A stretch of 64,000 bases of DNA from Escherichia coli (GTDB taxonomy: Bacteria > Pseudomonadota > Gammaproteobacteria > Enterobacterales > Enterobacteriaceae). Position numbers and translations under genes: made by a program. The notes below the pieces were generated by a model. That model was not told where the DNA came from. It saw only the letters and a list, made by a program, of their open reading frames with translations, and did not search any database. Position 1 is the first letter of the stretch. Each line of letters opens with the position of its first letter. The stretch lies in assembly GCF_002854065.1 (NCBI RefSeq), contig NZ_CP024153.1, one strand, 5' to 3'. This document shows, piece by piece, positions 1,981 to 43,431 of this stretch.

Positions 1981-2800
1981 GGCACTGTTGCAAATAGTCG
2001 GTGGTGATAAACTTATCATCCCCTTTTGCTGATGGAGCTGCACATGAACCCATTCAAAGGCCGGCATTTTCAGCGTGACATCATTCTGTGGGCCGTACGC
2101 TGGTACTGCAAATACGGCATCAGTTACCGTGAGCTGCAGGAGATGCTGGCTGAACGCGGAGTGAATGTCGATCACTCCACGATTTACCGCTGGGTTCAGC
2201 GTTATGCGCCTGAAATGGAAAAACGGCTGCGCTGGTACTGGCGTAACCCTTCCGATCTTTGCCCGTGGCACATGGATGAAACCTACGTGAAGGTCAATGG
2301 CCGCTGGGCGTATCTGTACCGGGCCGTCGACAGCCGGGGCCGCACTGTCGATTTTTATCTCTCCTCCCGTCGTAACAGCAAAGCTGCATACCGGTTTCTG
2401 GGTAAAATCCTCAACAACGTGAAGAAGTGGCAGATCCCGCGATTCATCAACACGGATAAAGCGCCCGCCTATGGTCGCGCGCTTGCTCTGCTCAAACGCG
2501 AAGGCCGGTGCCCGTCTGACGTTGAACACCGACAGATTAAGTACCGGAACAACGTGATTGAATGCGATCATGGCAAACTGAAACGGATAATCGGCGCCAC
2601 GCTGGGATTTAAATCCATGAAGACGGCTTACGCCACCATCAAAGGTATTGAGGTGATGCGTGCACTACGCAAAGGCCAGGCCTCAGCATTTTATTATGGT
2701 GATCCCCTGGGCGAAATGCGCCTGGTAAGCAGAGTTTTTGAAATGTAAGGCCTTTGAATAAGACAAAAGGCTGCCTCATCGCTAACTTTGCAACAGTGCC
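1981..2800 (+). mobile_element. IS26 copy 1 (820 bp, IS6 family)
   Basis: Terminal repeats GGCACTGTTGCAAA at both ends; 240-aa Tnp26 ORF; no 8-bp target duplication. Confidence 0.95.
2026..2748 (+). CDS. tnpA: IS26 transposase Tnp26 (Gly184 form: ...[14 protein letters not shown]...)
   Basis: 240 aa beginning [31 protein letters not shown] after the MLMELH leader. Confidence 0.95.
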
Positions 2801-3636: not shown

Positions 3637-4293
3637 CTAGTCAGGAAAAACAACAATACCCAACGCTTCGAGAAGCTGTTCTTGTTGCCAGCTGGCAATT
3701 TTGATACCTGATGTATCGACTTTTCGAGGATCTAAACCGTCGAGTTCGGCGTGACATAAATTAGCACCCTGTAGGCTAAACTGTCCCCAGACATCTTCAG
3801 AAAAAACACCTCGACTTAAGTCTGACTCTTTCAGTGATGCGCCCGCGAGGTGAGTCCCTATCCAGCGATTTTCAAACAGCTCACATTTTTCTAAACAGAC
3901 CCGCTCCATATTGGCATAAGACAGGTTACATCCAGTAATAAAGGCTGAGCAAAAGTACATACGATTACTCACTTGATTGGCAAAGTTTGCTCGGGAAAAG
4001 TTGGCCCCTTTTAAATCACACTCACGTAACTCAATACCGTAGCAATTGGCGTTACTAAAGTTTGCCATCGCAAGCTGGCATTGTTGGAAACTTGCATCGC
4101 GAAGGTCTGCGACATCAAAATGGCAACCTTCGATATCACCCTGTTCAATGAACTTGCAGTTAATAAATGTCGCATCACGCAAGTTAGCACGTCGAAAATC
4201 GCATCGGATAAAGGTGCAAGCAGTGAAAGTAATATCACTTAGATCTTGATGTGAAAAACTGTGGTGTCGATATGTGTGACGGTAGGTTTCCAT
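3637..4293 (-). CDS. qnrS: Qnr pentapeptide-repeat quinolone-resistance protein, QnrS family (closest to recalled QnrS2)
   Basis: 218 aa, METYRHTYRHHSFSHQDLSDITFTACTFIRCDFRRANLRD... with tandem pentapeptide repeats and C-terminal ...LEALGIVVFPD. Confidence 0.9.
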   Translation of the reverse strand: METYRHTYRHHSFSHQDLSDITFTACTFIRCDFRRANLRDATFINCKFIEQGDIEGCHFDVADLRDASFQQCQLAMANFSNANCYGIELRECDLKGANFSRANFANQVSNRMYFCSAFITGCNLSYANMERVCLEKCELFENRWIGTHLAGASLKESDLSRGVFSEDVWGQFSLQGANLCHAELDGLDPRKVDTSGIKIASWQQEQLLEALGIVVFPD

Positions 4294-4460: not shown

Positions 4461-5093
4461 TTGAAAAAAGTTATCCGCTTAAAAAGCCACAGAGAAAAGG
4501 AACCCAATAGATTACTGATGTCCGCCATGTTGGTTTCATCTAGTGCCCTGCTCCGTGTATTGGATTGCACAATCTATAACCATTATGCGGCAGCCTTTTG
4601 GATTGCACAATCCAAAGTTAGGGGAAGCCGACGAGCCAGGGAGCCCCGCGACCTGGTGAGCCTGGCCGAAGGCCAAAAGCCACTGCAAAACCGAAAAATT
4701 TCGTACGTACGAAAAAACATGGGGGGGTTAGAACTAGGGCAGGAAGAAGGTACATTACATAAATTAGCAAGTAGGTTAGGAATTTCATATCCCACCGCCG
4801 TTAGTTGGACTACCGACATAGGAATAAAGCTAAATCGGCAAGGCTATAATAGCCCCTCTCACGACTTTACAAATCTACAATGCCGCCATGCCAGGGAATT
4901 TCTAAAAATGACCAGGGATGATTTCTGCTCGTTATCCAAAGTAAGCAAAACAGCTCTAAGGGAATTTGAATTAGGGAAGGCCAATATCAGGAGAGAGACG
5001 GCTAATAAAATATTGGCCGCTTTTGAGGTGATGGGGATCAGGTTCAATGCTGATGGCACCTTTTCACATGGCCAAAGCACCCCCCGCGATTGA
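4461..5093 (+). CDS. Hypothetical HTH (XRE-like) DNA-binding protein; true start probably internal (about 4719)
   Basis: C-terminal ~90 aa resemble an HTH_XRE domain; the N-terminal 86 aa of the ORF are low-complexity and probably not coding. Confidence 0.4.
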   Translation: MKKVIRLKSHREKEPNRLLMSAMLVSSSALLRVLDCTIYNHYAAAFWIAQSKVRGSRRAREPRDLVSLAEGQKPLQNRKISYVRKNMGGLELGQEEGTLHKLASRLGISYPTAVSWTTDIGIKLNRQGYNSPSHDFTNLQCRHAREFLKMTRDDFCSLSKVSKTALREFELGKANIRRETANKILAAFEVMGIRFNADGTFSHGQSTPRD

Positions 5094-5157
5094 CTGCGCA
5101 ACCTGCTTTTTTATGTTAAATGGCAGTGCGAGAAGTGAGCTATGATGCGGCTTTCAG

Positions 5158-5343
5158 CTAGGTATCAGATGGCGACAATCTCGCCAATGCTGCGTTTAAA
5201 GTCGGCCTAGACACACCAAAGTGTTTTGCAACTTCAGCTTTCGTTATCTCTACATCCGACAGCATGGCCCTTGCCTTCCTGGCGTCTTCATCTGACATGG
5301 CCAAGGGTCGCCCACCGCGTCGCCCTCTTGCCCTTGCTGCCTC
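5158..5343 (-). pseudogene. Serine recombinase (resolvase/invertase) 3' fragment with C-terminal HTH, truncated by IS26
   Basis: Protein tail ...GRRGGRPLAMSDEDARKARAMLSDVEITKAEVAKHFGVSRPTLNAALARL resembles a resolvase C-terminal DNA-binding domain; upstream part replaced by IS26. Confidence 0.55.
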
Positions 5344-6163
5344 GGCACTGTTGCAAATAGTCGGTGGTGATAAACTTATCATCCCCTTTTGCTGATGGAG
5401 CTGCACATGAACCCATTCAAAGGCCGGCATTTTCAGCGTGACATCATTCTGTGGGCCGTACGCTGGTACTGCAAATACGGCATCAGTTACCGTGAGCTGC
5501 AGGAGATGCTGGCTGAACGCGGAGTGAATGTCGATCACTCCACGATTTACCGCTGGGTTCAGCGTTATGCGCCTGAAATGGAAAAACGGCTGCGCTGGTA
5601 CTGGCGTAACCCTTCCGATCTTTGCCCGTGGCACATGGATGAAACCTACGTGAAGGTCAATGGCCGCTGGGCGTATCTGTACCGGGCCGTCGACAGCCGG
5701 GGCCGCACTGTCGATTTTTATCTCTCCTCCCGTCGTAACAGCAAAGCTGCATACCGGTTTCTGGGTAAAATCCTCAACAACGTGAAGAAGTGGCAGATCC
5801 CGCGATTCATCAACACGGATAAAGCGCCCGCCTATGGTCGCGCGCTTGCTCTGCTCAAACGCGAAGGCCGGTGCCCGTCTGACGTTGAACACCGACAGAT
5901 TAAGTACCGGAACAACGTGATTGAATGCGATCATGGCAAACTGAAACGGATAATCGGCGCCACGCTGGGATTTAAATCCATGAAGACGGCTTACGCCACC
6001 ATCAAAGGTATTGAGGTGATGCGTGCACTACGCAAAGGCCAGGCCTCAGCATTTTATTATGGTGATCCCCTGGGCGAAATGCGCCTGGTAAGCAGAGTTT
6101 TTGAAATGTAAGGCCTTTGAATAAGACAAAAGGCTGCCTCATCGCTAACTTTGCAACAGTGCC
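5344..6163 (+). mobile_element. IS26 copy 2
   Basis: Identical to copy 1 including terminal repeats. Confidence 0.95.
5389..6111 (+). CDS. tnpA: IS26 transposase Tnp26 (Gly184 form)
   Basis: Identical 240-aa ORF. Confidence 0.95.
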   Translation: MLMELHMNPFKGRHFQRDIILWAVRWYCKYGISYRELQEMLAERGVNVDHSTIYRWVQRYAPEMEKRLRWYWRNPSDLCPWHMDETYVKVNGRWAYLYRAVDSRGRTVDFYLSSRRNSKAAYRFLGKILNNVKKWQIPRFINTDKAPAYGRALALLKREGRCPSDVEHRQIKYRNNVIECDHGKLKRIIGATLGFKSMKTAYATIKGIEVMRALRKGQASAFYYGDPLGEMRLVSRVFEM

Positions 6164-6409
6164 GTCGATTGAAACACGGTGCATCTGATCGGACAGGGCG
6201 TCTAAGAGCGGCGCAATACGTCTGATCTCATCGGCCGGCGATACAGGCCTCGCGTCCGGATGGCTGGCGGCCGGTCCGACATCCACGACGTCTGATCCGA
6301 CTCGCAGCATTTCGATCGCCGCGGTGACAGCGCCGGCGGGGTCTAGCCGCCGGCTCTCATCGAAGAAGGAGTCCTCGGTGAGATTCAGAATGCCGAACAC
6401 CGTCACCAT
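6164..6409 (-). pseudogene. sul1: sul1 dihydropteroate synthase, first ~82 codons only; truncated by IS26
   Basis: [82 protein letters not shown] then IS26. Confidence 0.9.
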
Positions 6410-6750: not shown

Positions 6751-6972
6751 GATATATCTCCCAATTTGTGTAGGGCTTATTATGCACGCTTAAAAATAAT
6801 AAAAGCAGACTTGACCTGATAGTTTGGCTGTGAGCAATTATGTGCTTAGTGCATCTAACGCCGCCATAAACGGCGACAGGGTGGCGCGCCTATTGCGCAT
6901 AAAATGGCGAAGCCATGCGCAACAGGCGCGGAATCTCTGGCGTCCGGTTTGATGGCTTTGTTATGCAAAGGA

Positions 6973-8279: not shown

Positions 8280-9110
8280 TTATAAATTTAGTGTGTTTAG
8301 AATGGTGATCGCATTTTTCTTGGCTTTTATGCTTGATGTTAAATTCGACCCCAAGTTTCCTGTAAGTGCGGACACAAAAACATATTTATGTCCTGATTTG
8401 CTTATAATAAACCCTTCAAACCATCCGTTTTGTAAGGTTCTATTTGCTGTGAATCCTGCACCAGTTTTCCCATACAGTTTTGTACTATTATCCAGATCTT
8501 GTAGATACATGTTCTCTATGGTGTTTTCTATGGCTGAGTTTTTAACTGGGAGATTGTGATTAATAATTTTACGCAGGAATTGAATTTGTTCTTCTGGTGA
8601 AATTTTTAAGCTACTTTCGAGCCATGCTTCTGTTAATCCGTTGTTTCTTTCTTTATCTCCAGAGAAGTCTTGATTTCCATAATCAAAATCTTTGAGATAA
8701 TTCTTGATTTTATTTAATCCAATTTTTTGGGTTATTTCTTGCGAAACCCAAACAACAGAAAATTGCATCCACGTCTTTGGTGTATGATTGCTGTTCCAGA
8801 TCTCCATTCCTTTGGGGGTTTTATCCCATTTGAATATGGTTTTCTGATCTATTATTTCCGCATCAAATGCCATAAGTGATAATGCGATCTTGAAAGTTGA
8901 ATCTGGTGCCATTTGCGTTGCACACTTTGCTTTATTGAATTGAGCAATTTCAGCGTTTGTGGATGCATCGTAAAGTAAAAAACAACCTTCAGTTCCTTCA
9001 AATAATGGAGATGCAACAGTAGAGATATCTGTTGATGCACTGGCGCTGCTGTAGATAATATTTGCAATTATTAAAAAAATAGCGAAGTTGATATGTATTG
9101 TGTTTTTCAT
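8280..9110 (-). CDS. blaOXA-1: OXA-1 class D beta-lactamase (integron cassette)
   Basis: 276 aa from internal start MKNTIHINFAIFLIIANIIYSSASASTDISTV...; STFK active-site motif present; the ORF track extends 15 codons upstream. Confidence 0.93.
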   Translation of the reverse strand: MKNTIHINFAIFLIIANIIYSSASASTDISTVASPLFEGTEGCFLLYDASTNAEIAQFNKAKCATQMAPDSTFKIALSLMAFDAEIIDQKTIFKWDKTPKGMEIWNSNHTPKTWMQFSVVWVSQEITQKIGLNKIKNYLKDFDYGNQDFSGDKERNNGLTEAWLESSLKISPEEQIQFLRKIINHNLPVKNSAIENTIENMYLQDLDNSTKLYGKTGAGFTANRTLQNGWFEGFIISKSGHKYVFVSALTGNLGSNLTSSIKAKKNAITILNTLNL

Positions 9111-9240
9111 AATAAGTATTGGTTTGGTAAAGGGCTTAATTTTAACGGCTAACAATTAATGAGGCTCCGGGTTCGCCCAACGTTTGACATGAGGGGCGGC
9201 CAAGGGCGCCAGCCCTTGGACGTCCCCCTCGATGGAAGGG

Positions 9241-9840
9241 TTAGGCATCACTGCGTGTTCGCTCGAATGCCTGGCGTGTTTGAACCATGTACACGGCTGG
9301 ACCATATGGGGTGGTTACGGTACCTTGCCTCTCAAACCCCGCTTTCTCGTAGCATCGGATCGCTCGCAAGTTGCTCGGCGACGGGTCCGTTTGGATCTTG
9401 GTGACCTCGGGATCATTGAACAGCAACTCAACCAGAGCTCGAACCAGCTTGGTTCCCAAGCCTTTGCCCAGTTGTGATGCATTCGCCAGTAACTGGTCTA
9501 TTCCGCGTACTCCTGGATCGGTTTCTTCTTCCCACCGTCCGTCCCCGCTTCCAAGAGCAACGTACGACTGGGCATACCCAATCGGCTCTCCATTCAGCAT
9601 TGCAATGTATGGAGTGACGGACTCTTGCGCTAAAACGCTTGGCAAGTACTGTTCCTGTACGTCAGCAAGTGTCGGGCGTGCTTCTTCTCCGCCCCACCAC
9701 TCGACGATATGAGATCGATTTAGCCACTCATAGAGCATCGCAAGGTCATGCTCAGTCATGAGGCGCAGTGTGACGGAATCGTTGCTGTTGGTCACGATGC
9801 TGTACTTTGTGATGCCTAACTTTGTTTTTGCGTTGCTCAT
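9241..9840 (-). CDS. aac(6')-Ib-cr: AAC(6')-Ib-cr aminoglycoside/fluoroquinolone acetyltransferase (Trp-to-Arg and Asp-to-Tyr variant); alternative GTG start at 9879
   Basis: ...[28 protein letters not shown]... and ...[15 protein letters not shown]... carry both -cr-defining substitutions. Confidence 0.9.
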
Positions 9841-9958
9841 GATGTCTAACTCCCAATTTGTGTAGGGCTTATTATGCACGCTTAAAAATAATAAAAGCAG
9901 ACTTGACCTGATAGTTTGGCTGTGAGCAATTATGTGCTTAGTGCATCTAACTTTGTTT

Positions 9959-10023
9959 TAGGGCGACTGCCCTGCTGCGTAACATCGTTGCTGCTCCATA
10001 ACATCAAACATCGACCCACGGCG
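9959..10023 (-). other. attI1 recombination site of integron A (approximate)
   Basis: 5'-CS sequence ...GCCCTAAAACAAAG/TTAG... junction with the first cassette. Confidence 0.5.
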
Positions 10024-10086
10024 TAACGCGCTTGCTGCTTGGATGCCCGAGGCATAGACTGTACAAAAAAACAGTCATAACAAGCC

Positions 10087-10768
10087 ATGAAAACCGCCAC
10101 TGCGCCGTTACCACCGCTGCGTTCGGTCAAGGTTCTGGACCAGTTGCGTGAGCGCATACGCTACTTGCATTACAGTTTACGAACCGAACAGGCTTATGTC
10201 CACTGGGTTCGTGCCTTCATCCGTTTCCACGGTGTGCGTCACCCGGCAACCTTGGGCAGCAGCGAAGTCGAGGCATTTCTGTCCTGGCTGGCGAACGAGC
10301 GCAAGGTTTCGGTCTCCACGCATCGTCAGGCATTGGCGGCCTTGCTGTTCTTCTACGGCAAGGTGCTGTGCACGGATCTGCCCTGGCTTCAGGAGATCGG
10401 AAGACCTCGGCCGTCGCGGCGCTTGCCGGTGGTGCTGACCCCGGATGAAGTGGTTCGCATCCTCGGTTTTCTGGAAGGCGAGCATCGTTTGTTCGCCCAG
10501 CTTCTGTATGGAACGGGCATGCGGATCAGTGAGGGTTTGCAACTGCGGGTCAAGGATCTGGATTTCGATCACGGCACGATCATCGTGCGGGAGGGCAAGG
10601 GCTCCAAGGATCGGGCCTTGATGTTACCCGAGAGCTTGGCACCCAGCCTGCGCGAGCAGCTGTCGCGTGCACGGGCATGGTGGCTGAAGGACCAGGCCGA
10701 GGGCCGCAGCGGCGTTGCGCTTCCCGACGCCCTTGAGCGGAAGTATCCGCGCGCCGGGCATTCCTGGC
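10087..10768 (+). pseudogene. intI1: intI1 class 1 integrase, 3'-truncated by IS26 (about 227 of 337 codons)
   Basis: [53 protein letters not shown]...; ORF runs into the IS26 terminal repeat at 10769. Confidence 0.9.
10174..10202 (-). promoter_or_regulatory. Integron Pc cassette promoter, TGGACA-N17-TAAACT (PcH1-type)
   Basis: Hexamers read on minus strand inside the intI1 5' region. Confidence 0.6.
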
Positions 10769-11588
10769 GGCACTGTTGCAAATAGTCGGTGGTGATAAAC
10801 TTATCATCCCCTTTTGCTGATGGAGCTGCACATGAACCCATTCAAAGGCCGGCATTTTCAGCGTGACATCATTCTGTGGGCCGTACGCTGGTACTGCAAA
10901 TACGGCATCAGTTACCGTGAGCTGCAGGAGATGCTGGCTGAACGCGGAGTGAATGTCGATCACTCCACGATTTACCGCTGGGTTCAGCGTTATGCGCCTG
11001 AAATGGAAAAACGGCTGCGCTGGTACTGGCGTAACCCTTCCGATCTTTGCCCGTGGCACATGGATGAAACCTACGTGAAGGTCAATGGCCGCTGGGCGTA
11101 TCTGTACCGGGCCGTCGACAGCCGGGGCCGCACTGTCGATTTTTATCTCTCCTCCCGTCGTAACAGCAAAGCTGCATACCGGTTTCTGGGTAAAATCCTC
11201 AACAACGTGAAGAAGTGGCAGATCCCGCGATTCATCAACACGGATAAAGCGCCCGCCTATGGTCGCGCGCTTGCTCTGCTCAAACGCGAAGGCCGGTGCC
11301 CGTCTGACGTTGAACACCGACAGATTAAGTACCGGAACAACGTGATTGAATGCGATCATGGCAAACTGAAACGGATAATCGGCGCCACGCTGGGATTTAA
11401 ATCCATGAAGACGGCTTACGCCACCATCAAAGGTATTGAGGTGATGCGTGCACTACGCAAAGGCCAGGCCTCAGCATTTTATTATGGTGATCCCCTGGGC
11501 GAAATGCGCCTGGTAAGCAGAGTTTTTGAAATGTAAGGCCTTTGAATAAGACAAAAGGCTGCCTCATCGCTAACTTTGCAACAGTGCC
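10769..11588 (+). mobile_element. IS26 copy 3
   Basis: 820 bp with both terminal repeats. Confidence 0.95.
10814..11536 (+). CDS. tnpA: IS26 transposase Tnp26 (Gly184 form)
   Basis: Identical 240-aa ORF. Confidence 0.95.
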   Translation: MLMELHMNPFKGRHFQRDIILWAVRWYCKYGISYRELQEMLAERGVNVDHSTIYRWVQRYAPEMEKRLRWYWRNPSDLCPWHMDETYVKVNGRWAYLYRAVDSRGRTVDFYLSSRRNSKAAYRFLGKILNNVKKWQIPRFINTDKAPAYGRALALLKREGRCPSDVEHRQIKYRNNVIECDHGKLKRIIGATLGFKSMKTAYATIKGIEVMRALRKGQASAFYYGDPLGEMRLVSRVFEM

Positions 11589-11628
11589 AGACAAAAGGCT
11601 GCCTCATCGCTAACTTTGCAACAGTGCC
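11589..11628 (+). repeat. Tandem second copy of the last 40 bp of IS26 (remnant of an earlier IS26)
   Basis: AGACAAAAGGCTGCCTCATCGCTAACTTTGCAACAGTGCC occurs twice in direct succession (11549-11588 and 11589-11628). Confidence 0.85.
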
Positions 11629-12137
11629 CCCTCCCGCACGATGATCGTGCCGTGATCGAAATCCAGATCCTTGACCCGCAGTTGCAAACCCTCACTGATC
11701 CGCATGCCCGTTCCATACAGAAGCTGGGCGAACAAACGATGCTCGCCTTCCAGAAAACCGAGGATGCGAACCACTTCATCCGGGGTCAGCACCACCGGCA
11801 AGCGCCGCGACGGCCGAGGTCTTCCGATCTCCTGAAGCCAGGGCAGATCCGTGCACAGCACCTTGCCGTAGAAGAACAGCAAGGCCGCCAATGCCTGACG
11901 ATGCGTGGAGACCGAAACCTTGCGCTCGTTCGCCAGCCAGGACAGAAATGCCTCGACTTCGCTGCTGCCCAAGGTTGCCGGGTGACGCACACCGTGGAAA
12001 CGGATGAAGGCACGAACCCAGTGGACATAAGCCTGTTCGGTTCGTAAACTGTAATGCAAGTAGCGTATGCGCTCACGCAACTGGTCCAGAACCTTGACCG
12101 AACGCAGCGGTGGTAACGGCGCAGTGGCGGTTTTCAT
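11629..12137 (-). pseudogene. intI1: intI1 class 1 integrase, 3'-truncated at a different point (about 170 codons retained)
   Basis: Same N-terminus as the other intI1, ends ...[12 protein letters not shown] then IS26-end sequence. Confidence 0.9.
12022..12050 (+). promoter_or_regulatory. Integron Pc cassette promoter, TGGACA-N17-TAAACT (PcH1-type)
   Basis: Hexamers read directly in the 5'-CS. Confidence 0.6.
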
Positions 12138-12211
12138 GGCTTGTTATGACTGTTTTTTTGTACAGTCTATGCCTCGGGCATCCAAGCAGCAAGCGCGTTA
12201 CGCCGTGGGTC

Positions 12212-12277
12212 GATGTTTGATGTTATGGAGCAGCAACGATGTTACGCAGCAGGGCAGTCGCCCTAAAACAAAGTTAG
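12212..12277 (+). other. attI1 recombination site of integron B (approximate)
   Basis: 5'-CS ...GCCCTAAAACAAAG/TTAG junction with the dfrA12 cassette. Confidence 0.5.
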
Positions 12278-12281
12278 CCAT

Positions 12282-12779
12282 ATGAACTCGGAATCAGTAC
12301 GCATTTATCTCGTTGCTGCGATGGGAGCCAATCGGGTTATTGGCAATGGTCCTAATATCCCCTGGAAAATTCCGGGTGAGCAGAAGATTTTTCGCAGACT
12401 CACTGAGGGAAAAGTCGTTGTCATGGGGCGAAAGACCTTTGAGTCTATCGGCAAGCCTCTACCGAACCGTCACACATTGGTAATCTCACGCCAAGCTAAC
12501 TACCGCGCCACTGGCTGCGTAGTTGTTTCAACGCTGTCGCACGCTATCGCTTTGGCATCCGAACTCGGCAATGAACTCTACGTCGCGGGCGGAGCTGAGA
12601 TATACACTCTGGCACTACCTCACGCCCACGGCGTGTTTCTATCTGAGGTACATCAAACCTTCGAGGGTGACGCCTTCTTCCCAATGCTCAACGAAACAGA
12701 ATTCGAGCTTGTCTCAACCGAAACCATTCAAGCTGTAATTCCGTACACCCACTCCGTTTATGCGCGTCGAAACGGCTAA
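12282..12779 (+). CDS. dfrA12: DfrA12 trimethoprim-resistant dihydrofolate reductase (cassette)
   Basis: 165 aa MNSESVRIYLVAAMGANRVIGNGPNIPWKIPGEQKIFRRLTEGKVVVMGRKTFESIG... Confidence 0.93.
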   Translation: MNSESVRIYLVAAMGANRVIGNGPNIPWKIPGEQKIFRRLTEGKVVVMGRKTFESIGKPLPNRHTLVISRQANYRATGCVVVSTLSHAIALASELGNELYVAGGAEIYTLALPHAHGVFLSEVHQTFEGDAFFPMLNETEFELVSTETIQAVIPYTHSVYARRNG

Positions 12780-12890
12780 CCATTCCGTCAACGGGACGCC
12801 AAAATGCTGCGCATTTTGGTTCCCTCCGCTGCGCTCCGGCTCTCGTTACGTCCAACGTTAGCACCACTGAAACCCAGCTTTATTTAGCTC

Positions 12891-13181
12891 ATGTTTATTC
12901 AAACGGCATTTAGCTTTTCAGGCGTTATTCAGTGCCTGTTTTGCCTTTTTTCCGGGCTTCGCCTGCATGGGCTGCGCAGGTTTTCAGTCTTTTTGGCCTC
13001 TAGCCCTTGCGTAGCAAGCGCAAGCAGCTATCGTTTTTGCAGTGCTGTGCCGCCTCGGTGGCGCAGCGTTTTTTCACGGTTAGCGCCCGTCGCCAAATTC
13101 AAGTTATCCGTTTTGGCTTCTGGTTCTAACATTTCGGTCAAGCCGACCCGCATTCTGCGGTCGGCTTACCTCGCCCGTTAG
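12891..13181 (+). CDS. gcuF: gcuF/orfF gene cassette of unknown function
   Basis: 96-aa ORF between dfrA12 and aadA2, the position of the classic array. Confidence 0.75.
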   Translation: MFIQTAFSFSGVIQCLFCLFSGLRLHGLRRFSVFLASSPCVASASSYRFCSAVPPRWRSVFSRLAPVAKFKLSVLASGSNISVKPTRILRSAYLAR

Positions 13182-13186
13182 ACATC

Positions 13187-13978
13187 ATGAGGGAAGCGGT
13201 GACCATCGAAATTTCGAACCAACTATCAGAGGTGCTAAGCGTCATTGAGCGCCATCTGGAATCAACGTTGCTGGCCGTGCATTTGTACGGCTCCGCAGTG
13301 GATGGCGGCCTGAAGCCATACAGCGATATTGATTTGTTGGTTACTGTGGCCGTAAAGCTTGATGAAACGACGCGGCGAGCATTGCTCAATGACCTTATGG
13401 AGGCTTCGGCTTTCCCTGGCGAGAGCGAGACGCTCCGCGCTATAGAAGTCACCCTTGTCGTGCATGACGACATCATCCCGTGGCGTTATCCGGCTAAGCG
13501 CGAGCTGCAATTTGGAGAATGGCAGCGCAATGACATTCTTGCGGGTATCTTCGAGCCAGCCATGATCGACATTGATCTAGCTATCCTGCTTACAAAAGCA
13601 AGAGAACATAGCGTTGCCTTGGTAGGTCCGGCAGCGGAGGAATTCTTTGACCCGGTTCCTGAACAGGATCTATTCGAGGCGCTGAGGGAAACCTTGAAGC
13701 TATGGAACTCGCAGCCCGACTGGGCCGGCGATGAGCGAAATGTAGTGCTTACGTTGTCCCGCATTTGGTACAGCGCAATAACCGGCAAAATCGCGCCGAA
13801 GGATGTCGCTGCCGACTGGGCAATAAAACGCCTACCTGCCCAGTATCAGCCCGTCTTACTTGAAGCTAAGCAAGCTTATCTGGGACAAAAAGAAGATCAC
13901 TTGGCCTCACGCGCAGATCACTTGGAAGAATTTATTCGCTTTGTGAAAGGCGAGATCATCAAGTCAGTTGGTAAATGA
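13187..13978 (+). CDS. aadA2: AadA2 streptomycin/spectinomycin adenylyltransferase ANT(3'')-Ia family (cassette)
   Basis: 263 aa MREAVTIEISNQLSEVLSVIERHLESTLLAVHLYGSAVDGGLKPYSDIDLLVTV... Confidence 0.93.
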   Translation: MREAVTIEISNQLSEVLSVIERHLESTLLAVHLYGSAVDGGLKPYSDIDLLVTVAVKLDETTRRALLNDLMEASAFPGESETLRAIEVTLVVHDDIIPWRYPAKRELQFGEWQRNDILAGIFEPAMIDIDLAILLTKAREHSVALVGPAAEEFFDPVPEQDLFEALRETLKLWNSQPDWAGDERNVVLTLSRIWYSAITGKIAPKDVAADWAIKRLPAQYQPVLLEAKQAYLGQKEDHLASRADHLEEFIRFVKGEIIKSVGK

Positions 13979-15648: not shown

Positions 15649-16470
15649 GGCACTGTTGCAAAGTTAGCGATGAGGCAGCCTTTTGTCTTATTCAAAGGCC
15701 TTACATTTCAAAAACTCTGCTTACCAGGCGCATTTCGCCCAGGGGATCACCATAATAAAATGCTGAGGCCTGGCCTTTGCGTAGTGCACGCATCACCTCA
15801 ATACCTTTGATGGTGGCGTAAGCCGTCTTCATGGATTTAAATCCCAGCGTGGCGTTGATTATCCGTTTCAGTTTGCCATGATCGCATTCAATCACGTTGT
15901 TCCGGTACTTAATCTGTCGGTGTTCAACGTCAGACGGGCACCGGCCTTCGCGTTTTGAGCAGAGCAAGCGCGCGACCATAGGCGGGCGCTTTATCCGTGT
16001 TGATGAATCGTGGGAATCTGCCACTTCTTCACGTTGTTGAGGATTTTACCCAGAAACCGGTATGCAGCTTTGCTGTTACGACGGGAGGAGAGATAAAAAT
16101 CGACAGTGCGGCCCCGGCTGTCGACGGCCCGGTACAGATACGCCCAGCGGCCATTGACCTTCACGTAGGTTTCATCCATGTGCCACGGGCAAAGATCGGA
16201 AGGGTTACGCCAGTACCAGCGCAGCCGTTTTTCCATTTCAGGCGCATAACGCTGAACCCAGCGGTAAATCGTGGAGTGATCGACATTCACTCCGCGTTCA
16301 GCCAGCATCTCCTGCAGCTCACGGTAACTGATGCCGTATTTGCAGTACCAGCGTACGGCCCACAGAATGATGTCACGCTGAAAATGCCGGCCTTTGAATG
16401 GGTTCATGTGCAGCTCCATCAGCAAAAGGGGATGATAAGTTTATCACCACCGACTATTTGCAACAGTGCC
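15649..16470 (-). mobile_element. IS26 copy 4 (822 bp; two 1-bp insertions)
   Basis: Both terminal repeats present; extra A at about 16010 (GGGAATCTG vs GGGATCTG) and extra T at about 15953 (GCGTTTTGAGC vs GCGTTTGAGC). Confidence 0.95.
15701..16425 (-). pseudogene. tnpA: IS26 tnpA disrupted by frameshift (split into 144-aa and 107-aa ORFs; Asn184 form)
   Basis: ORFs 15991-16425 and 15701-16024 together cover Tnp26 with a frame change between them. Confidence 0.85.
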
Positions 16471-16584: not shown

Positions 16585-16673
16585 GAACTATTGAAGTAAT
16601 CAATCAAATTTTATAGGCTGATAGCCAAGTAACAACCACCAATGATATGCCAGGTAAAATCAGGGGACGTAAA

Positions 16674-18110
16674 ATGAGTACTCTTGATGTTCAGAAGCTC
16701 AAGGATGATGCCGTCGAATGGGCCTTAACTCATGGTGTTGCTTTCAAGGAATCGTCGTATTCCGCAGTGCATACCCCGTTTACCCTGACACCAACACCTA
16801 TCAGCCGTAAATCCTATCAGTACTTAAAGAATGCAACAGGAATACTCAGCAAATTAATCTATTCAGTTTCTGAGGATCATGATTTTTTGTACTCTGCGAT
16901 TTATCCCATCAAGGCCGGGAATGCCTTCTTTTCAGCCCTCCTGAACATGCATCAACAAATCCATTCATCATCAAGGCATGCTCCTCGATTACCATTACTC
17001 ATTATGCGTAGCGACTTTATGGATGATAATCGTGATGGGTTCAGGCTTATAGAGTTCAATGGTATAGCTGCAGGAATGGGGCCGTTTGGTCAGCGGATAC
17101 ATGATCTGCATCACTATCTACAACGGCAATATCCCGCTGTCTTTTCTGATTTATCGAATCAGGCAACAGGGGCGCTTGTCGACAATCAAGCGATCGAAGG
17201 GTTATCAGCAGCGATTTGTCAGGCAACTTGCAGAATTAAGCAGGAGTTCGGAGACCCCGGCCCTGCCAGGTTCCTGATGATTGTGCAGGAGAATGAAAAT
17301 AATGTGTTTGATCAACACTTGCTTGAGCTCGCCCTCCAGCAAAAAGGAATCGAAACGCATCGCAGGACTTTTCGTGAACTGCATAATCAATTGAGTACAG
17401 GCGCCGACAACAGGCTCATTCTCGAGGGTGTAGGCCCACTTGATACCGTCTACTTACGTGCCGGATATCAGTATTCTGATTATGAAGCATTCAATATCGA
17501 TGAGCAGGAGTGTTGTCAGGCGCTGATGGCGACCCGAGTATTCATTGAGCAGCACCGGGTTGCAGTGAACGCCACAGTTGGCCAGCAACTGGCGACCAGC
17601 AAGCGAGTACAAATGCTGCTCTCGCAATTGGGTTACGACGAGTTTGTCGCATTTGGATTAACACTGCAGGAAGCTAAAATAGCAAAAACGATACTGGGTG
17701 AGATGTTACCCATCAGCCCGGATAGTATCAACCTTGCAAAAGAGTCTCCTTCGGAAACCTGGGTTCTCAAAAATCAGGGTGAAGGCGGGGGGCATTGTCT
17801 GTTTGGTGCGGATATCCTGACAAAACTGACGGAACTCACTCCACAACAATATCAGTCCTGGTCGCTGATGCGCCGTTTACACCCTCAGCCCCGAGCTATG
17901 CCCACCTTGATTGTGCGTAAAGGGGAGTTGCATAAGGTGAATGATTTGATAAGCGAACTTGGAATGTTCTCCGTGCAGACAGATAACAATCCCTCCAGTG
18001 CTGAGCACAGTTTTGCTGGATATCTAATTCGTAGCAAATCAGCTGAATCGACAGAGGGAGGGGTCCATAGTGGACAAGGTGTTTTAGACTCGCTGGTATA
18101 CAGCGATTAG
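16674..18110 (+). CDS. Eukaryotic-type glutathione synthetase-like ATP-grasp protein (ORF track start 16647)
   Basis: Blocks resembling recalled human GSS: TPFTLTPT, IEFNGIAAGMGP, LMIVQENENNVFDQ...IETHRRTFREL, VYLRAGYQ, KNQGEGGGHCLFG. Confidence 0.7.
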   Translation: MSTLDVQKLKDDAVEWALTHGVAFKESSYSAVHTPFTLTPTPISRKSYQYLKNATGILSKLIYSVSEDHDFLYSAIYPIKAGNAFFSALLNMHQQIHSSSRHAPRLPLLIMRSDFMDDNRDGFRLIEFNGIAAGMGPFGQRIHDLHHYLQRQYPAVFSDLSNQATGALVDNQAIEGLSAAICQATCRIKQEFGDPGPARFLMIVQENENNVFDQHLLELALQQKGIETHRRTFRELHNQLSTGADNRLILEGVGPLDTVYLRAGYQYSDYEAFNIDEQECCQALMATRVFIEQHRVAVNATVGQQLATSKRVQMLLSQLGYDEFVAFGLTLQEAKIAKTILGEMLPISPDSINLAKESPSETWVLKNQGEGGGHCLFGADILTKLTELTPQQYQSWSLMRRLHPQPRAMPTLIVRKGELHKVNDLISELGMFSVQTDNNPSSAEHSFAGYLIRSKSAESTEGGVHSGQGVLDSLVYSD

Positions 18111-18527: not shown

Positions 18528-19532
18528 ATGGAAAACATTGCGCTCATTGGTATCGATCTGGGTAAAAACTCTTTCCATATTCATTGCCAAGATCGTCGCG
18601 GCAAGGCTGTTTACCGTAAAAAATTTACACGGCCAAAGTTAATCGAATTTTTGGCGACATGCCCCGCTACAACCATCGCAATGGAAGCCTGTGGTGGCTC
18701 TCACTTTATGGCACGCAAGTTGGAAGAGTTGGGGCATTTTCCTAAGCTGATATCACCACAATTTGTCCGTCCATTCGTTAAAAGTAACAAAAACGACTTT
18801 GTCGACGCCGAAGCTATTTGTGAAGCTGCATCGCGTCCGTCTATGCGTTTTGTACAGCCCAGAACTGAATCTCAGCAGGCAATGCGTGCGCTGCATCGTG
18901 TCCGTGAATCCCTGGTTCAGGATAAGGTAAAAACAACCAATCAGATGCATGCTTTTCTGCTGGAATTTGGCATCAGCGTTCCACGAGGAGCTGCCGTTAT
19001 TAGCCGACTGAGTACCCTTCTTGAGGACAATAGTTTGCCTCTATACCTCAGCCAGTTATTGCTGAAATTACAACAGCATTATCACTATCTTGTTGAGCAG
19101 ATTAAAGATTTGGAATCCCAGTTGAAACGAAAGTTGGACGAAGATGAGATTGGACAGCGCTTGCTGAGCATTCCCTGCGTCGGAACACTGACAGCGAGTA
19201 CTATTTCAACTGAGATTGGCGACGGGAAGCAGTACGCCAGCAGTCGTGACTTTGCGGCGGCAACAGGGCTAGTGCCTCGACAGTACAGCACGGGAGGTCG
19301 GACGACATTGCTGGGAATTAGTAAGCGAGGTAACAAAAAGATCCGAACTTTGTTGGTTCAATGTGCCAGGGTATTCATACAAAAACTGGAACACCAGTCT
19401 GGCAAATTGGCCGATTGGGTCAGGGATCTACTGTGTAGGAAAAGCAACTTTGTCGTCACTTGTGCTCTGGCAAACAAGCTGGCCAGAATAGCCTGGGCCC
19501 TAACGGCACGACAGCAAACTTATGTAGCATAA
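18528..19532 (+). CDS. IS110-family (DEDD) transposase/recombinase
   Basis: 334 aa MENIALIGIDLGKNSFHIHCQD... N-terminal RuvC-like DEDD character and C-terminal ...GISKRGNKKIRTLLVQCA... motif typical of the IS110 family. Confidence 0.85.
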   Translation: MENIALIGIDLGKNSFHIHCQDRRGKAVYRKKFTRPKLIEFLATCPATTIAMEACGGSHFMARKLEELGHFPKLISPQFVRPFVKSNKNDFVDAEAICEAASRPSMRFVQPRTESQQAMRALHRVRESLVQDKVKTTNQMHAFLLEFGISVPRGAAVISRLSTLLEDNSLPLYLSQLLLKLQQHYHYLVEQIKDLESQLKRKLDEDEIGQRLLSIPCVGTLTASTISTEIGDGKQYASSRDFAAATGLVPRQYSTGGRTTLLGISKRGNKKIRTLLVQCARVFIQKLEHQSGKLADWVRDLLCRKSNFVVTCALANKLARIAWALTARQQTYVA

Positions 19533-25002: not shown

Positions 25003-26448
25003 CGTGGTTCATGATAACTTCTGCTCTTCATCGTGCGGCCGACTGGGCTAAATCTGTGTTCTCTTCGGCGGCGCTGGGTGATCCTCGCCGTACTGCCCGC
25101 TTGGTTAACGTCGCCGCCCAATTGGCAAAATATTCTGGTAAATCAATAACCATCTCATCAGAGGGTAGTGAAGCCATGCAGGAAGGCGCTTACCGATTTA
25201 TCCGCAATCCCAACGTTTCTGCCGAGGCGATCAGAAAGGCTGGCGCCATGCAAACAGTCAAGTTGGCTCAGGAGTTTCCCGAACTGCTGGCCATTGAGGA
25301 CACCACCTCTTTGAGTTATCGCCACCAGGTCGCCGAAGAGCTTGGCAAGCTGGGCTCTATTCAGGATAAATCCCGCGGATGGTGGGTTCACTCCGTTCTC
25401 TTGCTCGAGGCCACCACATTCCGCACCGTAGGATTACTGCATCAGGAGTGGTGGATGCGCCCGGATGACCCTGCCGATGCGGATGAAAAGGAGAGTGGCA
25501 AATGGCTGGCAGCGGCCGCAACTAGCCGGTTACGCATGGGCAGCATGATGAGCAACGTGATTGCGGTCTGTGACCGCGAAGCCGATATTCATGCTTATCT
25601 GCAGGACAAACTGGCGCATAACGAGCGCTTCGTGGTGCGCTCCAAGCACCCACGCAAGGACGTAGAGTCTGGGTTGTATCTGTACGACCATCTGAAGAAC
25701 CAACCGGAGTTGGGTGGCTATCAGATCAGCATTCCGCAAAAGGGCGTGGTGGATAAACGCGGTAAACGTAAAAATCGACCAGCCCGCAAGGCGAGCTTGA
25801 GCCTGCGCAGTGGGCGCATCACGCTAAAACAGGGGAATATCACGCTCAACGCGGTGCTGGCCGAGGAGATTAACCCGCCCAAGGGTGAGACCCCGTTGAA
25901 ATGGTTGTTGCTGACCAGCGAACCGGTCGAGTCGCTAGCCCAAGCCTTGCGCGTCATCGACATTTATACCCATCGCTGGCGGATCGAGGAGTTCCATAAG
26001 GCATGGAAAACCGGAGCAGGAGCCGAGAGGCAACGCATGGAGGAGCCGGATAATCTGGAGCGGATGGTCTCGATCCTCTCGTTTGTTGCGGTCAGGCTGT
26101 TACAGCTCAGAGAAAGCTTCACGCTGCCGCAAGCACTCAGGGCGCAAGGGCTGCTAAAGGAAGCGGAACACGTAGAAAGCCAGTCCGCAGAAACGGTGCT
26201 GACCCCGGATGAATGTCAGCTACTGGGCTATCTGGACAAGGGAAAACGCAAGCGCAAAGAGAAAGCAGGTAGCTTGCAGTGGGCTTACATGGCGATAGCT
26301 AGACTGGGCGGTTTTATGGACAGCAAGCGAACCGGAATTGCCAGCTGGGGCGCCCTCTGGTAAGGTTGGGAAGCCCTGCAAAGTAAACTGGATGGCTTTC
26401 TTGCCGCCAAGGATCTGATGGCGCAGGGGATCAAGATCTGATCAAGAG
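25003..26448 (+). mobile_element. IS50L of Tn5, outside end (~85 bp) missing
   Basis: Homology to IS50 begins about 8 bp before the tnp start; ochre codon truncates Tnp as in IS50L; inside end CTGATCAAGAGACAG precedes aph(3')-IIa. Confidence 0.85.
25011..26363 (+). CDS. tnp: IS50L transposase (C-terminally short form ending ...GIASWGALW)
   Basis: 450 aa MITSALHRAADWAKSVFSSAALGDPRRTARLVNVAAQLAKYSGKSITISSEG... Confidence 0.9.
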   Translation: MITSALHRAADWAKSVFSSAALGDPRRTARLVNVAAQLAKYSGKSITISSEGSEAMQEGAYRFIRNPNVSAEAIRKAGAMQTVKLAQEFPELLAIEDTTSLSYRHQVAEELGKLGSIQDKSRGWWVHSVLLLEATTFRTVGLLHQEWWMRPDDPADADEKESGKWLAAAATSRLRMGSMMSNVIAVCDREADIHAYLQDKLAHNERFVVRSKHPRKDVESGLYLYDHLKNQPELGGYQISIPQKGVVDKRGKRKNRPARKASLSLRSGRITLKQGNITLNAVLAEEINPPKGETPLKWLLLTSEPVESLAQALRVIDIYTHRWRIEEFHKAWKTGAGAERQRMEEPDNLERMVSILSFVAVRLLQLRESFTLPQALRAQGLLKEAEHVESQSAETVLTPDECQLLGYLDKGKRKRKEKAGSLQWAYMAIARLGGFMDSKRTGIASWGALW

Positions 26449-26457
26449 ACAGGATGA

Positions 26458-27264
<807 letters not shown>

Positions 27265-27457: not shown

Positions 27458-28277
27458 GGCACTGTTGCAAATAGTCGGTGGTGATAAACTTATCATCCCC
27501 TTTTGCTGATGGAGCTGCACATGAACCCATTCAAAGGCCGGCATTTTCAGCGTGACATCATTCTGTGGGCCGTACGCTGGTACTGCAAATACGGCATCAG
27601 TTACCGTGAGCTGCAGGAGATGCTGGCTGAACGCGGAGTGAATGTCGATCACTCCACGATTTACCGCTGGGTTCAGCGTTATGCGCCTGAAATGGAAAAA
27701 CGGCTGCGCTGGTACTGGCGTAACCCTTCCGATCTTTGCCCGTGGCACATGGATGAAACCTACGTGAAGGTCAATGGCCGCTGGGCGTATCTGTACCGGG
27801 CCGTCGACAGCCGGGGCCGCACTGTCGATTTTTATCTCTCCTCCCGTCGTAACAGCAAAGCTGCATACCGGTTTCTGGGTAAAATCCTCAACAACGTGAA
27901 GAAGTGGCAGATCCCACGATTCATCAACACGGATAAAGCGCCCGCCTATGGTCGCGCGCTTGCTCTGCTCAAACGCGAAGGCCGGTGCCCGTCTGACGTT
28001 GAACACCGACAGATTAAGTACCGGAACAACGTGATTGAATGCGATCATGGCAAACTGAAACGGATAATCAACGCCACGCTGGGATTTAAATCCATGAAGA
28101 CGGCTTACGCCACCATCAAAGGTATTGAGGTGATGCGTGCACTACGCAAAGGCCAGGCCTCAGCATTTTATTATGGTGATCCCCTGGGCGAAATGCGCCT
28201 GGTAAGCAGAGTTTTTGAAATGTAAGGCCTTTGAATAAGACAAAAGGCTGCCTCATCGCTAACTTTGCAACAGTGCC
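27458..28277 (+). mobile_element. IS26 copy 6 (Asn184 variant); left arm of Tn6010-like oqx unit
   Basis: 820 bp with terminal repeats. Confidence 0.95.
27503..28225 (+). CDS. tnpA: IS26 transposase Tnp26 (Asn184 form)
   Basis: 240-aa ORF. Confidence 0.95.
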   Translation: MLMELHMNPFKGRHFQRDIILWAVRWYCKYGISYRELQEMLAERGVNVDHSTIYRWVQRYAPEMEKRLRWYWRNPSDLCPWHMDETYVKVNGRWAYLYRAVDSRGRTVDFYLSSRRNSKAAYRFLGKILNNVKKWQIPRFINTDKAPAYGRALALLKREGRCPSDVEHRQIKYRNNVIECDHGKLKRIINATLGFKSMKTAYATIKGIEVMRALRKGQASAFYYGDPLGEMRLVSRVFEM

Positions 28278-28316: not shown

Positions 28317-28796
28317 ATGTTAGATTACCGCTTCCCGACAGCTTTGCAGATGGTTCTCAGCGTAGCAATGGCGGAGCAGATGGGTGAACGTTCGACGAGT
28401 GCGATTCTGGCCTACGGCCTGGAAGCGAACCCGAGCTTTATCCGTAAACTAATGGTTCCGCTAACTCGTGACGGCATTATCGTCTCCACGCTTGGTCGCA
28501 ACGGCTCAATTCATCTTGGCCGTCCGGCGGACAAGATCACCCTGCGTGATATCTATCTTTCGGTTATCGAAGATAAAAAACTGTGGGCGTCGCGTCCTGA
28601 CGTCCCGGCCCGCTGCGTGGTCAGCGCCAACGCCTGCTGGTACTTCAAATCGGTTGCCGATGAAGCAGAGCAGGCTTCGTTAAACGTCCTCGCTCGCCAT
28701 ACCGTGGCCAGCGCGCTGGAGGCGGTCAAAAACGCCGATACCAGCGGCTGCGACCCGGTGCCGGAAATGATCGCCCGCTTTAAAAAAGCGCATTAA
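28317..28796 (+). CDS. oqxR: OqxR Rrf2-family transcriptional repressor of oqxAB
   Basis: 159-aa ORF divergent/convergent with oqxAB in the position of oqxR in Tn6010. Confidence 0.8.
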   Translation: MLDYRFPTALQMVLSVAMAEQMGERSTSAILAYGLEANPSFIRKLMVPLTRDGIIVSTLGRNGSIHLGRPADKITLRDIYLSVIEDKKLWASRPDVPARCVVSANACWYFKSVADEAEQASLNVLARHTVASALEAVKNADTSGCDPVPEMIARFKKAH

Positions 28797-32041: not shown

Positions 32042-33217
32042 TCAGTTAAGGGTGGCGCTGGAGGTCATGGCAACGGTTTTGGCGTTAACCGGCATACCCG
32101 GCATAAACACTTTTTGTAAGCCGTCGACGATGACGCTATCCCCAGGATTCAACCCCTTCTGAACGATGCGTAAACCGTCTGCCAGCCGCCCTGGGGTAAT
32201 GTCGCGGCGCTGTGCTTTACCATCTTTATCAACGATATAGACGTATTTACGATCCTGATCGGTCAGTACCGCTTTGTCGTCGATCAGCGTGGCTTTGAAC
32301 TCTGCGCTGCCCGGCAGACGCACGCGGGCAAACAGCCCCGGCGTGAACAGACGCTGCGAGTTATCCAGCAGCGCACGCATGCGGATGGTGCCGGTACTCG
32401 GCGTTAACTGATTATCGAGAAAATCCACTTTGCCCTGGTGGGGGTAACCCTCCTCGCCCACCAGGCCAATCTCCACCGGGAGCGCCTGATTATCGCTGGA
32501 CGCGCCTTGCCCGCGGCGGGCGAGGTTTTGATAGTGGAGGTAGGTTGACTCGTCGACGTCAAAGTAGACGTACACCGTCTTTTGCGAGACCAGGGTGGTG
32601 AGCACGCTGGCGGTGTCGCCCGCGGTGACCAGGTTACCGCTGGTGATCAGCGCCCGGCTGGCGCGGCCGTCAATAGGGGCGGTCACTTTGGTGAAGTCGA
32701 GGTTAAGCTGCGCGGCATCCACCGCCGCCTGCGCGGCGCGAATGTCGGCCTGCGCCTGAACCGCGGCTGACCGGCGCTGCTCCCACTCTTCACGGGAGAC
32801 GAGGTTGGTATGGACTAATTTATCGGTGCGGTTCGCCTCGCTTTGCGCGAGGCTGGCCTGCGTTTTGGCTCTTGCCAACGCCGCCTGCGCCTGCTCCAGC
32901 GCGGCGCGATAGGTTCTGTCATCTATCGTGAACAGCACCTGGCCCTTTTTTACCTCCTGGCCGTCAGTGTAATTCACTTTATCAATGTATCCCGAGACGC
33001 GAGGGCGAAGCTGAACGCTCTCCACCGCTTCAATGCGACCGTTAAAACTATCCCACTGACTGATCGACTTCACCAGCACCTTAGCGGCGCTGACCGTCGG
33101 GGCGGGAGGCGCAGCATTCTGTGCGACGCTGTCGTCGCAGCCGACGAGCAGAAAGGAGAGCATCATCGCGCCGAGCGCGGTCAGGTGAATGTTTCCCCAG
33201 GTTTTTTGCAGGCTCAT
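32042..33217 (-). CDS. oqxA: OqxA periplasmic adaptor (membrane fusion protein)
   Basis: 391 aa MSLQKTWGNIHLTALGAMMLSFLLVGCDDSVAQNAAPPAPTVSAAKVLVK... Confidence 0.93.
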   Translation of the reverse strand: MSLQKTWGNIHLTALGAMMLSFLLVGCDDSVAQNAAPPAPTVSAAKVLVKSISQWDSFNGRIEAVESVQLRPRVSGYIDKVNYTDGQEVKKGQVLFTIDDRTYRAALEQAQAALARAKTQASLAQSEANRTDKLVHTNLVSREEWEQRRSAAVQAQADIRAAQAAVDAAQLNLDFTKVTAPIDGRASRALITSGNLVTAGDTASVLTTLVSQKTVYVYFDVDESTYLHYQNLARRGQGASSDNQALPVEIGLVGEEGYPHQGKVDFLDNQLTPSTGTIRMRALLDNSQRLFTPGLFARVRLPGSAEFKATLIDDKAVLTDQDRKYVYIVDKDGKAQRRDITPGRLADGLRIVQKGLNPGDSVIVDGLQKVFMPGMPVNAKTVAMTSSATLN

Positions 33218-37864: not shown

Positions 37865-37960
37865 TTTTGTCTTCAGGGTATGTCATGGATGCGATTACCA
37901 CGAATATCGCCGGCACAGGAGTGCCTGCTACCGGCGTCCCGTTATCAGCCGTTCCGCTGA

Positions 37961-38407
37961 CTATTCGATTCGCTGGAAGACTTTTTTACTTCCATCCGGT
38001 GAGAATGCGATAACATCGTAAGCCTCTTTTCGGGCTCCCATCTCCATTCCAGGACTTCCTGCTGGCATACCGGGGGTGGCGAGACCGTATATACCCGAAC
38101 CAGACTGCATTGCCTTATGTATCGTTGTCGCAGGCACATGGCCTTCAATGATCAAATTACCGGCAACCGCGGTATGACAACTTCGTAGTCCTGCAGGAAT
38201 AGCATGCTTTTCTTTCAGGGCTGACAGCGCCTGATCATTCATGATGTGAGTTCGTACTTCAAACCCGTCTTTTTCCATCGCTTTGCCCCACAGGGAACAA
38301 CAGCCACAGTTTTCAGATTTGTACATATCAATCACTTTTTCACTCGCCATCGCGGGTAGTGAAAGGCCGAGAGCCAGCGCTATTAGAACCACTTTTTTCA
38401 TACTCAC
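37961..38407 (-). CDS. DUF411 periplasmic metal-binding protein (sil ORF105/SilG-like)
   Basis: 148 aa with signal peptide and CGCC motif; sits between silA and silP. Confidence 0.8.
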   Translation of the reverse strand: MSMKKVVLIALALGLSLPAMASEKVIDMYKSENCGCCSLWGKAMEKDGFEVRTHIMNDQALSALKEKHAIPAGLRSCHTAVAGNLIIEGHVPATTIHKAMQSGSGIYGLATPGMPAGSPGMEMGARKEAYDVIAFSPDGSKKVFQRIE

Positions 38408-38487
38408 CTCTGTATATTATCGATATAAACCCTGACGTCAGGGTGAATCAGTAAAGAAGGACACCCACAGGGGGTGCCCTTTCAGGT

Positions 38488-41400: not shown

Positions 41401-41634
41401 GCCAGGCACGGACAACATGGTGGTGGTAAGCGGATAGGTGACCTGGTTTTCTACAATCTGCGGGGCCTGGCCGGGATAGCTGGTTTTGATAATGACCTGC
41501 ACATCTGACAGGTCAGGCAAGGCATCTACCGGCGTGTTAATAATCGTCCATGTTCCCCAGATGCTGAGAAACAGGGCCCCCATCATGACCAGGAAACGGT
41601 TGGCGACAGAGCGCCGGATAATCCATTCAATCAT
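38488..41634 (-). CDS. silA: SilA heavy-metal RND efflux pump (CusA family)
   Basis: 1048 aa [49 protein letters not shown]... Confidence 0.93.
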
Positions 41635-41644
41635 CGTCGTCTCC

Positions 41645-42937: not shown

Positions 42938-43050
42938 ACAATTTTCCGCTAAAAAATCAAAACACCTGGCATATGCGCCTGACGGTTAACTCACACATAT
43001 ACCTATGTGAATGTACAGGCGCACAGGATGTAATCGCTCCGGACAGCCAA

Positions 43051-43404: not shown

Positions 43405-43431
43405 TTTAATTTCCTGATTAATTAAATAAAT

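Follow-up and report, generated by a model that had tools for sequence, protein, structure and literature searches.

An intact aac(6')-Ib-cr gene in the complete In37-type array of an IS26-truncated integron, accompanied by qnrS2 and oqxAB, on a probable F-type plasmid of Escherichia coli

The gene at positions 9241–9840 of a 64,000-nucleotide stretch of Escherichia coli DNA (NCBI RefSeq assembly GCF_002854065.1, contig NZ_CP024153.1; hereafter the window) is, judged by its sequence, an intact aac(6')-Ib-cr, which is a well-known resistance gene. We consider it very probable (roughly 96%) that this gene resides in an In37-type array, within an integron truncated by IS26, on an F-type plasmid that also carries two further quinolone-resistance mechanisms. 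Published work already covers this gene, its array, the IS26 structure and the combination of three genes (PMC7158099, PMC11832570). The present analysis is of value for annotation and surveillance, and the biology itself adds nothing new.

The following features define the gene and its two diagnostic codons.

9241–9840, minus strand: aac(6')-Ib-cr coding sequence, 199 codons plus stop, uninterrupted, with ATG at 9840 and the stop at 9241–9243
9241–9795, minus strand: GTG-start form of aac(6')-Ib-cr, 184 aa, NCBI name AAC(6')-Ib-cr5
9535–9537, minus strand: codon 102, CGG, encoding Arg (wild type Trp)
9304–9306, minus strand: codon 179, TAT, encoding Tyr (wild type Asp)

A previous sequence-only reading had placed aac(6')-Ib at these positions and had proposed that it carries both substitutions that define the -cr form. 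Both parts of that proposal are borne out by alignment with the wild-type enzyme, and the gene limits proved exact. When all PDB chains were searched, the best match of the 199-aa protein was wild-type AAC(6')-Ib (1V0C/2BUE/2VQY). All 199 of its 199 residues align to 1V0C with 197/199 identical, and the sole differences are W102R and D179Y, such that both diagnostic positions are non-wild-type. The corresponding peptides, SGDGRWEEE and TTPYGPAVY, are both present in the minus-strand translation of 9241–9840 and occur once each in a six-frame translation of the whole window, which excludes any additional aac(6')-Ib there, including a wild-type one. Three plus-strand antisense open reading frames (9371–9712, 9232–9477 and 9159–9404) are without a Pfam match and were set aside as by-products of a GC-rich gene.

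Family assignments agree with this identification. The protein scores 428 bits against the NCBIfam profile NF033074 for the AAC(6')-Ib family (cut-off 400; profile positions 2–184 of 184) and contains a GNAT domain (Pfam Acetyltransf_8, E = 7e-33). Like the standard Ib enzyme, it has QLLANAS where the Ib11 variant (2PR8) has LS. The 184-aa GTG-start product is identical, with zero differences, to WP_063840321.1, which is annotated on plasmids p974-IncF (NZ_MH580300) and p23AR0998B and is named by NCBI ‘fluoroquinolone-acetylating aminoglycoside 6'-N-acetyltransferase AAC(6')-Ib-cr5’. RGI/CARD labels the 600-bp form AAC(6')-Ib-cr6 (98.99% identity), and the cr5 and cr6 labels reflect nothing more than nomenclature and the choice of start codon. 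The 199-aa ATG-start form agrees exactly with the published residue numbers, Trp102Arg and Asp179Tyr.

AAC(6')-Ib-cr reportedly goes back to Robicsek et al. 2006. The -cr form departs from aac(6')-Ib only by Trp102Arg and Asp179Tyr, and this pair enables the enzyme to acetylate norfloxacin and ciprofloxacin at their piperazine nitrogen (PMC12061968, citing Robicsek 2006, Vetting 2008, Maurice 2008). From this literature we infer that the protein would act as a GNAT-fold aminoglycoside 6'-N-acetyltransferase whose W102R and D179Y changes allow N-acetylation of the piperazinyl amine of ciprofloxacin and norfloxacin. Such acetylation would be expected to cause a small rise in MIC for these two drugs only.

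The gene is the first member of a cassette array composed of the elements listed here.

9175–9246, minus strand: attC of the aac(6')-Ib-cr (aacA4) cassette, from GCCTAAC (which overlaps the stop codon) to GTTGGGC
8280–9110, minus strand: blaOXA-1, 276 aa, NF000388 at 649 bits against a cut-off of 580, identical to WP_001334766.1
7510–8142, minus strand: full catB3, 210 aa, NF000490 positions 1–209 of 210, identical to WP_000186237.1
6973–7425, minus strand: full arr-3, 150 aa, NF033144, protein identical to WP_001749986.1
6403–6750, minus strand: qacEdelta1 of the 3'-CS, identical to WP_000679427.1

Read from the promoter, the order is aac(6')-Ib-cr, blaOXA-1, catB3, arr-3 and qacEdelta1, which makes aac(6')-Ib-cr promoter-proximal. 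The proteins of all four cassettes match annotated references at 100%, and the four cassettes are full length and in the order of the array that carries the INTEGRALL-style name In37 (PMC5437533). The window also shares attI1 and qacEdelta1 with the In37-type class 1 integron, but its intI1 and sul1 are cut. The suggestion that full-length catB3 and arr-3 mark a complete four-cassette array therefore holds, since the two products (210 and 150 aa) are identical to CatB3 and Arr-3.

Because catB3 and arr-3 are full, the array is of the In37 type and is not the common IS26-aac(6')-Ib-cr-blaOXA-1-delta-catB3-IS26 arrangement, which is described as the prevalent form and has over 1000 blastn matches among public genomes (PMC11832570). 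The prevalent form has the same aac(6')-Ib-cr and blaOXA-1 sequence as the window. However, the 3' part of catB3 is missing from it, as are arr-3, attI1 and Pc, and it has IS26 copies in inverted orientation (PMC11832570), whereas those bounding the array here are direct.

The region upstream of the first cassette retains the following integron elements.

9952–10010, minus strand: attI1, ending ...GCCCTAAAACAAAG/TTAGAT with the crossover at 9951/9950, as read from the sequence
10174–10202, minus strand: Pc, variant PcH1, TGGACA-N17-TAAACT, by pattern match
10058–10083, minus strand: P2 hexamers with a 14-bp spacer
9847–9951, minus strand: 105 bp duplicating the 5' end of the qacE cassette, where the 3'-CS begins; located after attI1 and ahead of the ATG

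Thus, both attI1 and Pc lie upstream of the first cassette, as is characteristic of a class 1 integron. At the attI1 end, the letters on the two sides of 9951/9950 are ...AAACAAAG and TTAGAT. PcH1 is a rather weak Pc variant, and P2 with a 14-bp spacer is the form regarded as inactive in class 1 integrons. The assignment of Pc as PcH1 was made by its hexamers, following Table 3 of PMC5437533.

The sequence that follows attI1 is the qacE-leader copy and not the canonical start of the aacA4 cassette. After this copy come a GTTAGAC core site, a 31-bp linker that includes the ATG and then the usual GTTAGGC aacA4 start. The leader contributes a GGGAG ribosome-binding site located 9 nt before the ATG of the 199-aa form. 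PMC5437533 lists similar ‘qacE^101’ fragments joined to other cassettes, and we therefore regard the leader copy as a standing feature of the array; p974-IncF and p23AR0998B carry it without a single base difference. Together with positions 6755–6859, the copy at 9847–9951 forms a direct repeat of 105 bp (99% identical, 3,092 bp apart) that brackets all four cassettes. Repeats of this kind could permit RecA-dependent, integrase-independent loss of the whole array.

If the integron elements function as they do elsewhere, transcription of aac(6')-Ib-cr would presumably begin at the PcH1 promoter retained inside the intI1 remnant. Translation would presumably begin at the ATG behind the qacE-derived GGGAG site, and the GTG that yields the 184-aa form is an alternative candidate start.

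The integron is interrupted on both sides by IS26, as is evident from these features.

10087–10768, plus strand: intI1 remnant, approximately codons 1–228 of 337, NCBIfam PRK15417, predicted to be non-functional
6164–6409, minus strand: sul1 remnant, first 246 bp, with the IS26 end at 6163; a PGAP fusion CDS in p23AR0998B
10769–11588, plus strand: IS26, 820 bp
5344–6163, plus strand: IS26, 820 bp
1981–2800, plus strand: IS26 bounding the qnrS2 segment

The intI1 remnant abuts the IS26 inverted repeat that begins at 10769 and falls short of the 337 codons of the complete gene; PGAP annotates the corresponding intI1 of p23AR0998B as a pseudogene. At the other end, qacEdelta1 is intact and sul1 is limited to 246 bp, leaving the 3'-CS incomplete. 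The array is complete, yet IS26 has truncated the integron around it at either end, a point that is missing from the earlier reading. The IS26 copies at 1981, 5344 and 10769 are all in direct orientation and bound the intervening segments, giving the structure IS26-qnrS2-IS26-[delta-sul1-qacEdelta1-arr-3-catB3-blaOXA-1-aac(6')-Ib-cr-delta-intI1]-IS26.

With intI1 and sul1 cut, the integron would be unable to move cassettes itself. Without IntI1 acting in cis, the cassettes are expected to stay fixed in place, and mobility is expected to come from IS26. Indeed, the 4.6-kb segment between direct IS26 copies may move as an IS26 translocatable unit, as we infer from published circular forms of this kind. 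The outer flanks of the IS26-bounded unit, GCTGCCTC and AGACAAAA, carry no 8-bp target-site duplication. This lack would fit conservative or homologous movement by IS26 and still allows mobility, although the route by which the unit arrived is unreadable from the sequence because such duplications are lacking. The possibility that GCTGCCTC, to the left of the IS26 copy at 5344, is an IS26 remnant was ruled out by its sequence.

An intact gene need not be an active one. An improbable alternative is that aac(6')-Ib-cr is silent or phenotypically irrelevant, and that quinolone resistance would come from qnrS2, oqxAB and chromosomal mutations. Consistent with this alternative, intI1 is truncated, the promoter is the weak hybrid PcH1 and P2 has the inactive 14-bp spacer. 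Furthermore, one study saw no change in fluoroquinolone MIC when In37 was cloned in E. coli TOP10 (Table 2, PMC5437533), and for this reason the phenotype of aac(6')-Ib-cr alone may be marginal. However, the IS26 truncation has left PcH1, attI1 and the ribosome-binding site intact, and aac(6')-Ib-cr is the gene nearest the promoter. Unrelated plasmids carry the same module base for base, and the effect of the enzyme, though small, can be selected (PMC12061968). All of this counts against a silent gene.

The two other quinolone-resistance determinants and their neighbours occupy the following positions.

3637–4293, minus strand: qnrS2, 218 aa, a pentapeptide-repeat protein protecting the quinolone target, identical to WP_012537714.1
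28866–32018, minus strand: oqxB, RND efflux permease, 1050 aa, NF000037 at 2495 bits against a cut-off of 2200, positions 1–1050 of 1050
32042–33217, minus strand: oqxA, periplasmic adaptor, 391 aa, NF000272 at 874 bits against a cut-off of 835, positions 1–391 of 391
28317–28796, plus strand: Rrf2-family regulator in the oqxR position beside oqxB, TIGR00738 match
27458–28277, plus strand: IS26 flanking the oqxAB segment
33474–34293, plus strand: IS26 flanking the oqxAB segment

QnrS2 is full length by its family profile (NF000056, 510 bits against a cut-off of 460, positions 1–218 of 218). Likewise, OqxA and OqxB are both full length and above their curated cut-offs, and their genes are mutually adjacent. 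An Rrf2 regulator is also annotated at the equivalent position near oqxB in p974-IncF. The prediction that the window encodes three quinolone-resistance mechanisms is confirmed in that aac(6')-Ib-cr, qnrS2 and oqxAB are all full length and exceed the cut-offs of their families.

QnrS2 and OqxAB would thereby add target protection and efflux as two more mechanisms on the same F-type plasmid. Of clinical and epidemiological relevance, one conjugative-type plasmid region joins drug modification by AAC(6')-Ib-cr, target protection by QnrS2 and efflux by OqxAB. The same region holds genes for beta-lactam, phenicol, rifampicin, trimethoprim and aminoglycoside resistance and the silver/copper (sil) genes. 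Combining three mechanisms would raise the fluoroquinolone MIC in steps and make it easier for chromosomal gyrA/parC mutants to be selected. IS26 bounds every one of the modules, which may move independently.

The remainder of the window includes these features.

35387–47155: full sil silver/copper operon (silP, silA, silB, silF, silC, silR, silS and silE)
59818–61964: sopA/sopB partition genes, as on IncF plasmids
25011–27264: IS50R-like IS4 transposase with APH(3')-II, a Tn5 remnant

The right half of the window, which contains the sil operon, sopA/sopB and other genes, is found at 99–100% coverage and about 99–99.9% identity in many IncF plasmids, pCP8-3-IncFIB being one example. These matches justify the label ‘plasmid-mediated’. 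It is less probable still than a silent gene that the region is chromosomal through IS26-mediated insertion and that this label is merely nominal. Modules carrying aac(6')-Ib-cr and qnrS2 are known on E. coli chromosomes (PMC11832570), and in a search of complete E. coli genomes 711 of 4,740 matching places were chromosomal. However, the best matches are plasmids, the sopA/sopB and sil region is as on the IncF plasmids pCP8-3-IncFIB and p974-IncF, and a RepE-like fragment lies within the window, all of which favours an F-type plasmid. The idea that the gene is a plain aac(6')-Ib, or an intermediate with just one of the two substitutions, acting on aminoglycosides only, has a negligible probability, for although the protein is an AAC(6')-Ib family member and 197/199 identical to wild type, it has both cr residues (R102 and Y179) and equals the curated AAC(6')-Ib-cr5, and the 1V0C alignment excludes the idea.

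Comparisons with known plasmids place the IS26-bounded module of the window among close relatives. The 4605-bp segment shares 4604 of its 4605 bases with both p974-IncF (from E. coli, pork) and p23AR0998B (from E. coli, human urine, New Zealand). The single differing base, at 7378, is A here and C in the two plasmids, a synonymous difference in the third base of arr-3 codon 16. At least 80% of a 6.5-kb query around the array is covered by 67 PLSDB plasmids, and at least 80% of the 4.6-kb segment by 66 of 5,426 complete E. coli genomes. In contrast, no PLSDB plasmid or complete E. coli genome covers at least 80% of either of two 25-kb queries (1–25000 and 9001–34000), and the window is thus a mosaic of known modules.

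A precedent for the combination is pRJ749, an IncHI2/IncN plasmid reported in 2020 that carries aac(6')-Ib-cr, qnrS2 and oqxAB together and for whose transconjugant a ciprofloxacin MIC of 2 mg/L was measured (PMC7158099). Inverse PCR on pRJ749 recovered circles of IS26-intI1-aac(6')-Ib-cr-blaOXA-1-catB-arr-3-qacEdelta1-delta-sul1, IS26-qnrS2 and IS26-oqxAB (PMC7158099). The window shares its gene order and the IS26 junctions of the array with the pRJ749/pHS13-IncHI2 module (PMC7158099), p974-IncF and p23AR0998B. In pRJ749, as in p974-IncF and the window, oqxAB is on the plasmid that carries the array. The backbone of pRJ749 is IncHI2/IncN, whereas that of the window is F-type with sil; p974-IncF has aac(6')-Ib-cr, qnrS2 and oqxAB plus sil on an F-type plasmid.

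Tentatively, and with well under even confidence, we suggest that the exact mosaic (IS26-qnrS2, the In37-type array, a delta-intI1-dfrA12-aadA2 integron set head to head across one IS26 with a 40-bp duplicated end, and IS26-oqxAB-IS26 on an F-type sil plasmid) may be undeposited, and that the array could be lost through the 105-bp repeats. Every module and kind of junction in the mosaic is nonetheless known.

Several minor differences and irregularities were observed elsewhere in the window. Toward the IS26 copy at 5344, the qnrS2 segment has about 590 bp of extra sequence, as positions 4751–5343 are absent from p974-IncF and p23AR0998B. Because this stretch is extra here, the IS26 junction on the 5344 side differs from that of the two plasmids.

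On the other side of the array, the last 40 bp of the IS26 copy at 10769–11588 are tandemly repeated exactly at 11589–11628, the pair spanning 11549–11628 directly before a second truncated intI1. This gene belongs to a second class 1 integron remnant (11629–13978) that comprises delta-intI1 (about 170 codons), dfrA12, a small open reading frame and an aadA2-like gene, whereas p974-IncF and p23AR0998B have dfrA17-aadA5 in their second integron. Positions 9947–10595 and 11629–12277 form a perfect 649-bp inverted repeat, which sets the two integrons head to head across one IS26, and the PcH1 promoter is present in both remnants.

Two further IS26 sequences are atypical. At 15649–16470, paired IS26 inverted repeats are 822 bp apart where 820 bp is normal; this spacing points to a variant IS26 or a 2-bp indel. 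The IS26 left inverted repeat at 23184 stands without a partner, suggesting a truncated copy. Finally, an open reading frame resembling a eukaryote-type glutathione synthase (TIGR01986 at 236 bits, below the cut-off of 330) adjoins an IS110-family transposase (16647–18110 and 18528–19532), and related plasmids annotate this pair as ‘glutathione synthase’ and IS4321/IS5075.
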